Below are positions 1,159 to 1,402 of a DNA stretch of 14,774 bases, piece after piece. Each line of letters starts with the position of its first letter. The stretch's first letter is position 1. Below the pieces are notes generated by a model. The model did no database searches. It had not been told where the DNA came from and worked only from the letters and a program-made list of their open reading frames with translations. This DNA is from a virus (lineage: Duplodnaviria > Heunggongvirae > Uroviricota > Caudoviricetes). The position numbers and the translations under genes are program-made. The stretch is from the IMG/VR virus record IMGVR_UViG_2698536395_000026; one strand, written 5' to 3'.

Positions 1159-1402
1159 ACCACCTTAACCACTATCGAAGTGCACAAAGCCTTGCAATCC
1201 AGTGCAAAGCTTGTGTGTCTTAGATTTCAGGGTTGCTTTCTTAGGCGTACAGGTTAATGAAATGCATCAAAATACCATTCACATCCACCTCACCCAGTAC
1301 TTCATAACCAACTGTTATCAGTGTATTTCCTCTCAGTTTGGTAAAGTGACAACCCTATGAGTACGAAATCGGTTAGGTGCTATCTGGCTATTGCTCTATT
1401 TA

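Follow-up and report, generated by a model that had tools for sequence, protein, structure and literature searches.

The DNA analysed here, a stretch of 14,774 nucleotides from a tailed-phage (Caudoviricetes) record in IMG/VR (IMGVR_UViG_2698536395_000026) that we call the window, opens with a phage integrase gene whose 3' end faces the 3' end of an acyltransferase gene across a gap of 244 bp (Table 1). A preliminary description made from the sequence alone had drawn attention to this convergent junction, and its limits agree with the ORF ends; Pfam matches confirm the two genes. The integrase contains the domains Arm-DNA-bind_3 (2e-25), Phage_int_M and Phage_integrase, and is named 'prophage integrase IntS' in the RefSeq annotation of the Escherichia coli 11368 chromosome; its gene is 95-97% identical at the nucleotide level to the int genes of HK620, CUS-3, Sf6 and Kapi1. 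The acyltransferase gene has a GC content of 29-38%, versus 45-52% for int, and was without a match among phage records at the megablast level. The boundary of the acyltransferase cassette falls within ~8 nt of the acyltransferase stop codon. The gene is co-directional with a tailspike gene and starts (2545) no more than 70 bp from the tailspike stop (2616). The gap itself consists of two unlike parts, a conserved element next to int (part A) and a gene remnant next to the acyltransferase gene (part B).

Table 1. Features at the int/acyltransferase junction and at the far end of the 11368 prophage. Positions are those of the window except in the last two lines, which use the numbering of the NC_013361.1 segment where 20044 = 3305043.
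Feature	Position	Strand	Description
intS	1-1158	+	IntS-type (P4-like arm-binding) tyrosine integrase, 385 aa; stop codon TGA 1156-1158
Gap	1159-1402		Interval between the 3' ends of int and the acyltransferase gene
Part A	1159-~1219	+	int-distal conserved element with imperfect hairpin; BLAST similarity to other phages reaches ~1227
Hairpin, window copy	~1182-1219	+	Predicted fold: stem ~1182-1196 / 1203-1219, loop AUCCAG 1197-1202
Part B	1220-~1398	-	Pseudogene remnant of a small UmuD'-like gene
Original stop codon of part B	1222-1220	-	TAA; C-terminal ~59 codons left
Acyltransferase gene	1403-2545	-	Acyl_transf_3 (Pfam), 380 aa; stop codon 1403-1405; RefSeq 'acyltransferase family protein'
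torI	19580-19780
attR core	19854-19868

The position of the attachment sites can be read from a complete genome. Positions 1-14553 of the window are identical to a prophage of the HK620/Sf6/KplE1 type in the chromosome of E. coli O26:H11 strain 11368 (NC_013361.1); the window begins at the int ATG, and the att position is taken from this identical sequence, outside the window. In 11368, a 15-nt attL core, CTGCAGGGGACACCA, forms the 3' end of argW (tRNA-Arg), with 162 nt from its end to the int ATG, which is window position 1. The stretch between this core and int is near-identical to the attP arm (P' arm) that leads into int in HK620, and in both the HK620 and the Sf6 record the attP core is annotated upstream of int as this 15/16-mer. 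The core recurs, as attR, ~40.7 kb away, directly after torI (the RDF/xis gene) and preceded by HK620 P-arm sequence. The 11368 prophage thus occupies argW, int lying at attL and torI/xis at attR, as seen in the one chromosome inspected for both sites among the 105 that share the junction. All of the computable defining features of a KplE1/HK620/Sf6-type IntS-TorI module at argW are present, with the att sites outside the window. The likeness to KplE1 (CPS-53), HK620, Sf6, CUS-3 and Kapi1 thus extends to the integrase, to the core at argW and to torI beside attR.

In KplE1, attL overlaps the intS promoter, and that promoter is repressed by IntS and TorI (PMC2951348). In this group attP lies between int and xis, so that the two genes come to stand at opposite ends of the prophage after integration (PMC8787464). 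Integration into the 3' end of argW places int beside attL and the tRNA gene, and xis/torI beside attR at the far end. Because attP sits between int and xis, the order int, cargo, tailspike remains unbroken whether the phage is integrated or excised, and integration never splits the int/acyltransferase junction. Directly after attR, at 3305043-3306233 of NC_013361.1, there is a tyrosine-integrase pseudogene, followed by IS elements; two integrative elements therefore stand in tandem at argW.

These positions bear directly on the expectation with which the junction had been approached. In P22-type phages the order is conversion genes, attP, int, and the preliminary description reasoned that an integrated prophage should be split between int and the conversion gene. 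That expectation fails for this group, in which attP lies between int and xis (HK620, Sf6, KplE1 and Kapi1); Sf6, whose type had been proposed as a reference for attP, likewise has its attP upstream of int. Phages of the P22/SfV/SfX type do resemble the present one in carrying O-antigen-modifying cargo between tailspike and int, but their att is on the other side of int. The preliminary description had also allowed that att might lie upstream of int, beside a tRNA gene and out of view, and this is where it was found; a tRNA-derived core at that place is also what had been named beforehand as speaking against an att role for 1159-1402.

The view that the gap nonetheless holds an att site of the phage, be it degenerate or secondary, draws on analogy with P22-type genomes and on the position of the lambda homologue of part A (see below), which lies beyond tI, ~220-260 nt away from the attP core, a likeness of position only. 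Against it, no tRNA was found in the window by ARAGORN, a search of the whole window for the argW att core, allowing up to 3 mismatches, gave no match, and repeats of the GGGTAAAA type, annotated in HK620 as attP arm repeats, have no match within 1159-1402. The earlier failure to recognise an att core or tRNA segment in the gap is thereby borne out. Furthermore, both cores are accounted for elsewhere, the lambda copy falls outside the annotated Int-binding sites of attP, and 105 complete E. coli chromosomes have the int/acyltransferase junction unbroken and at 100% identity, with no phage-host junction at 1159-1402. An att site in the gap is extremely improbable, and the observed positions of attL and attR refute it.

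The contiguity of the junction had also been taken as a possible sign that the contig represents an excised or circular phage genome. The window does start exactly at the int ATG, so that the sequence upstream is out of view, but in 11368 the identical sequence is part of the chromosome, between attL and attR. The right end of the window, an IS600-like element followed by adapter-like bases, is likewise typical of a short-read contig from a chromosome that carries a disrupted prophage. Contiguity is uninformative about the form of the contig because it is expected in integrated and excised forms alike. An excised form is thus not needed to account for a junction that is unbroken in all 105 chromosomes and that, in the one inspected, is bounded by attL and attR, and we regard it as very unlikely.

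If the gap is not a recombination site of the integrase, what are its 244 bp? Part B reads, on the minus strand, as PDST*PISYS*GCHFTKLRGNTLITVGYEVLGEVDVNGILMHFINLYA*ESNPEI*, a frame with three in-frame stops whose N-terminal half (~45 codons) is missing and which is not intact. It has 72-78% nucleotide identity to the 3' part of intact genes of 101-107 aa in a few E. coli genomes (TUM9754 and PK5), its translation is 57% identical to the 106-aa protein of PK5 (E 2e-20), and it has no match in the phage database. In TUM9754 the small gene abuts intS directly, with no hairpin between them, and in PK5 it stands beside another acyltransferase gene. The PK5 protein weakly matches UmuD' (E 9e-4), falls far below the cut-offs of the HumD and PRK10276 models and has no Pfam match; the label UmuD'-family is tentative because the intact homologues resemble UmuD'/HumD only weakly. 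These alignments show part B to be the remnant of a dead gene.

The homology of part B to the UmuD'-like gene stops at ~1395-1398. From this boundary we infer that the acyltransferase gene is a later cargo insertion which truncated an earlier cargo gene: the 3' half of a UmuD'-like gene would have been left behind when the low-GC acyltransferase cassette was acquired and the gene was cut. The scar may thus date the acquisition of the acyltransferase relative to that of the earlier cargo.

The intact small UmuD'-like genes (101-107 aa; segments 3469-4118 and 3469-4030) share a GFPSPA motif, have no Pfam match, and stand beside a DinI gene or a 'DNA polymerase V' fragment. Elsewhere among E. coli prophages, the variable locus of the O-antigen modification genes thus holds cargo that resembles SOS-mutagenesis functions.

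The ORF list contains one other candidate for the content of the gap, a GTG ORF at 1202-1360 on the plus strand that would encode a protein of 52 aa. It is not credible because it runs antisense to the recognisable pseudogene frame; its start codon lies inside the hairpin of part A, and RefSeq annotates nothing there among the genomes listed. A protein-coding gap is accordingly something to which we give next to no weight.

Part A has a different character. The preliminary description had noted an approximate direct repeat with partial dyad symmetry, TGCACAAAGCCTTG at 1181-1194 and TGCAAAGCTTG at 1203-1213. The coordinates are right and the dyad is a real signal, for the two sequences are the two arms of an imperfect hairpin; the direct repeat is weak, and a repeat search (seed 6, minimum length 9) did not report the pair. 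The arms can also be read as a direct repeat because blocks within them (TGCA, AAGCTT) are self-complementary. The A/U-rich stem is interrupted by an internal mismatch, and the fold of the window copy (-17.6 kcal/mol, z = -1.4) is no better than that of shuffled sequence. Searching Rfam with permissive E-values over 1000-1600 gave only chance-level snoRNA and miRNA matches, far below gathering scores. An origin of the element from a tRNA T-arm (TTGCAATCC vs TTCGAATCC) was considered and rejected: the flanks form no T-stem by eye, and ARAGORN is silent.

The modest fold of the window copy stands against that of the family to which it belongs. The consensus element, AGAGCACAAAGCCTTGCAATCCAGTGCAAAGCTTTGTGTGTCTCAGTTTTGTCTCAT, folds at -19.9 kcal/mol (z = -3.5), a value that none of 200 shuffles equalled, and its hairpin is also stable on the minus strand (z = -3.9). 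Aligned with the family, the window copy lacks 1 nt of the 3' arm and its U-tract is broken up: no U-tract follows the stem directly (AGAUUUCAGG), where the consensus has AGUUUUGU. By this comparison the window copy is a decayed version of the element.

The literature searched yielded no paper on the element, and the only prior description found is a one-line annotation in the HK620 record (AF335538, 38289..23), where exactly this hairpin is called 'terminator for prophage excision transcript'. The HK620 hairpin is just as far from the int stop codon as the window copy, which differs from it in having lost one base of the 3' arm and in its replaced U-rich tail (CTTAGATTTCAGG in the window, CTCAGTTTTGT in HK620). 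On these differences, the window hairpin is probably a poorer terminator than the HK620 copy. A promoter and terminator scan called no terminator in 1000-1600, nor in the consensus copy. We infer that the intact form of part A is most likely a weak, factor-independent terminator of the int transcript. In the opposite direction, the acyltransferase transcript, for which no separate terminator is evident, would continue across part B and reach the hairpin, in antisense to int; the minus-strand fold of the acyltransferase 3' region (1220-1410) is not different from shuffles.

The element is far more widespread than its single annotation would suggest. Spanning 37-57 nt, it is present in lambda, in the CPS-53 prophage of K-12, and in P22-like, HK97-like and Stx phages. 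BLAST matched it in 87 phage records (P22-like, HK97-like, lambda-like and Stx), independent of the type of integrase, and an exact-word scan of IMG/VR added about 110 further copies. It occurs in 1 to 3 copies in 1875 of 5426 complete E. coli genomes (35%), and is annotated in none of the copies listed. Among GTDB species representatives, an exact 25-mer was found in E. coli and E. albertii only, and Salmonella P22-like phages gave weaker matches, by BLAST only. Two of the copies, both intact and unannotated, are in well-studied genomes. The lambda copy (27473-27509) matches at 36 of 37 positions, reads in the int direction and lies 29 nt beyond the U-tract of tI. The copy in the CPS-53 prophage of K-12 MG1655 lies in the spacer between intS and yfdG (~1725-1790 of the segment examined).

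The flanks of the element fall into 10 left and 37 right sequence classes in 54 left-right combinations, and one right flank is joined to different left flanks in different copies. The left classes reduce to at least 4 unrelated contexts, namely the IntS 3' end, lambda tI and two others. The usual order is IntS, the element, a variable cargo (none, GtrA, or acyltransferases in either orientation) and then a convergent tailspike gene. These heterologous flanks mark the element as a mosaic joint, and its conservation may reflect either selection or repeated homologous exchange. Part A can be pictured as a ~60-bp hairpin that closes the integration module in many Escherichia lambdoid phages, and as a short homologous stretch within which adjoining modules may be exchanged.

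The same comparison shows how the cargo at this locus differs among related phages. Here it is the convergent 380-aa acyltransferase gene with its umuD-like remnant. Sf6 instead has a 333-aa oac gene that is co-directional with int, in the opposite orientation to the present acyltransferase, and lacks the hairpin element; K-12 CPS-53 has gtrA and gtrB, and HK620 has no annotated cargo gene at the corresponding spot. Lambda resembles these phages in that the element closes its integration module distally and reads in the int direction, but differs in the placement of attP, which lies between int and the element in lambda, whereas here the element follows int directly. The lambda copy, moreover, aligns downstream of tI and not to tI/sib itself.

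A further possibility is that part A functions as a regulatory RNA, for example as a sib-like processing site or as an antisense or insulator hairpin for int or for the convergent cargo. Several properties of the element fit such a role: the strong conservation of loop and stem in copies with heterologous flanks, a consensus hairpin that is stable whichever strand is folded, the position of the lambda copy right after tI/sib, and the presence of the element, with no annotation among the copies listed, in 35% of complete E. coli genomes. The alignment of copies is of little help. In 75 distinct copies 92% of cells are paired, and none of the 13 pairs of the main helix is changed on both sides; the copies had been gathered by an exact 17-mer over the loop and inner 3' arm, a bias that limits the test. 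A main helix without double-sided changes therefore speaks neither for nor against an RNA structure. The lack of covariation thus has to be read with this bias in mind when it is set, together with the lack of an Rfam family match, against a regulatory RNA. Also against it are the unpaired substitutions tolerated in the stem in many copies, the complete absence of the element from Sf6 and TUM9754, and the decay of the window copy. The logic of lambda sib, in which integration separates sib from int, is inapplicable here because att lies upstream of int, and lambda-style retroregulation cannot apply. A regulatory RNA is in our judgement improbable, though less so than an excised contig.

The reading that accommodates both parts is that the gap is, very probably, an internal phage junction rather than a recombination site, and that its 244 bp are the leftovers of modular recombination, a decayed hairpin and a dead gene. 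A broader proposal is that the element is selectively maintained at module boundaries of Escherichia lambdoid phages, where it would combine a transcription stop or insulator with a preferred joint for homologous exchange; we put this forward tentatively, as a conjecture that is more apt to be wrong than right but that deserves more weight than a regulatory RNA.

Much of this is familiar biology. The int/acyltransferase arrangement is that of the known IntS/TorI module and is explained by what is already known of it; only the breadth of the hairpin element, including its presence in lambda and K-12, and the pseudogene scar are mildly new. The result matters little in itself, and its main use is to avert the misreading of a common O26-type prophage as one with a "missing attP" or as an "excised form". 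The P22 rule of conversion genes, attP, int is unsuited to IntS-type phages. About one in three complete E. coli genomes carries, unannotated, a hairpin by which annotators may recognise where the integration module ends distally, and the intact copies in lambda and K-12 CPS-53 make the element directly testable there.

At its right end the window departs from the 11368 prophage, at 14554, and ~14544-14745 is the left end of an IS600-like element of the IS3 family, 96-97% identical to annotated IS600, with orfA starting at 14620. The insertion lies in a gene upstream of the capsid gene, a 'hypothetical protein' in RefSeq that we take to be the scaffold gene; given this insertion, the source strain probably carries the prophage in disrupted form. 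The last ~29 nt (14746-14774, cctgtagcttatacacatctgacgctgccg) have no match to IS600 and resemble the Nextera adapter CTGTCTCTTATACACATCTGACGCTGCCG. This suggests that the window is a whole short-read contig that ends in a repeat and a residue of adapter.
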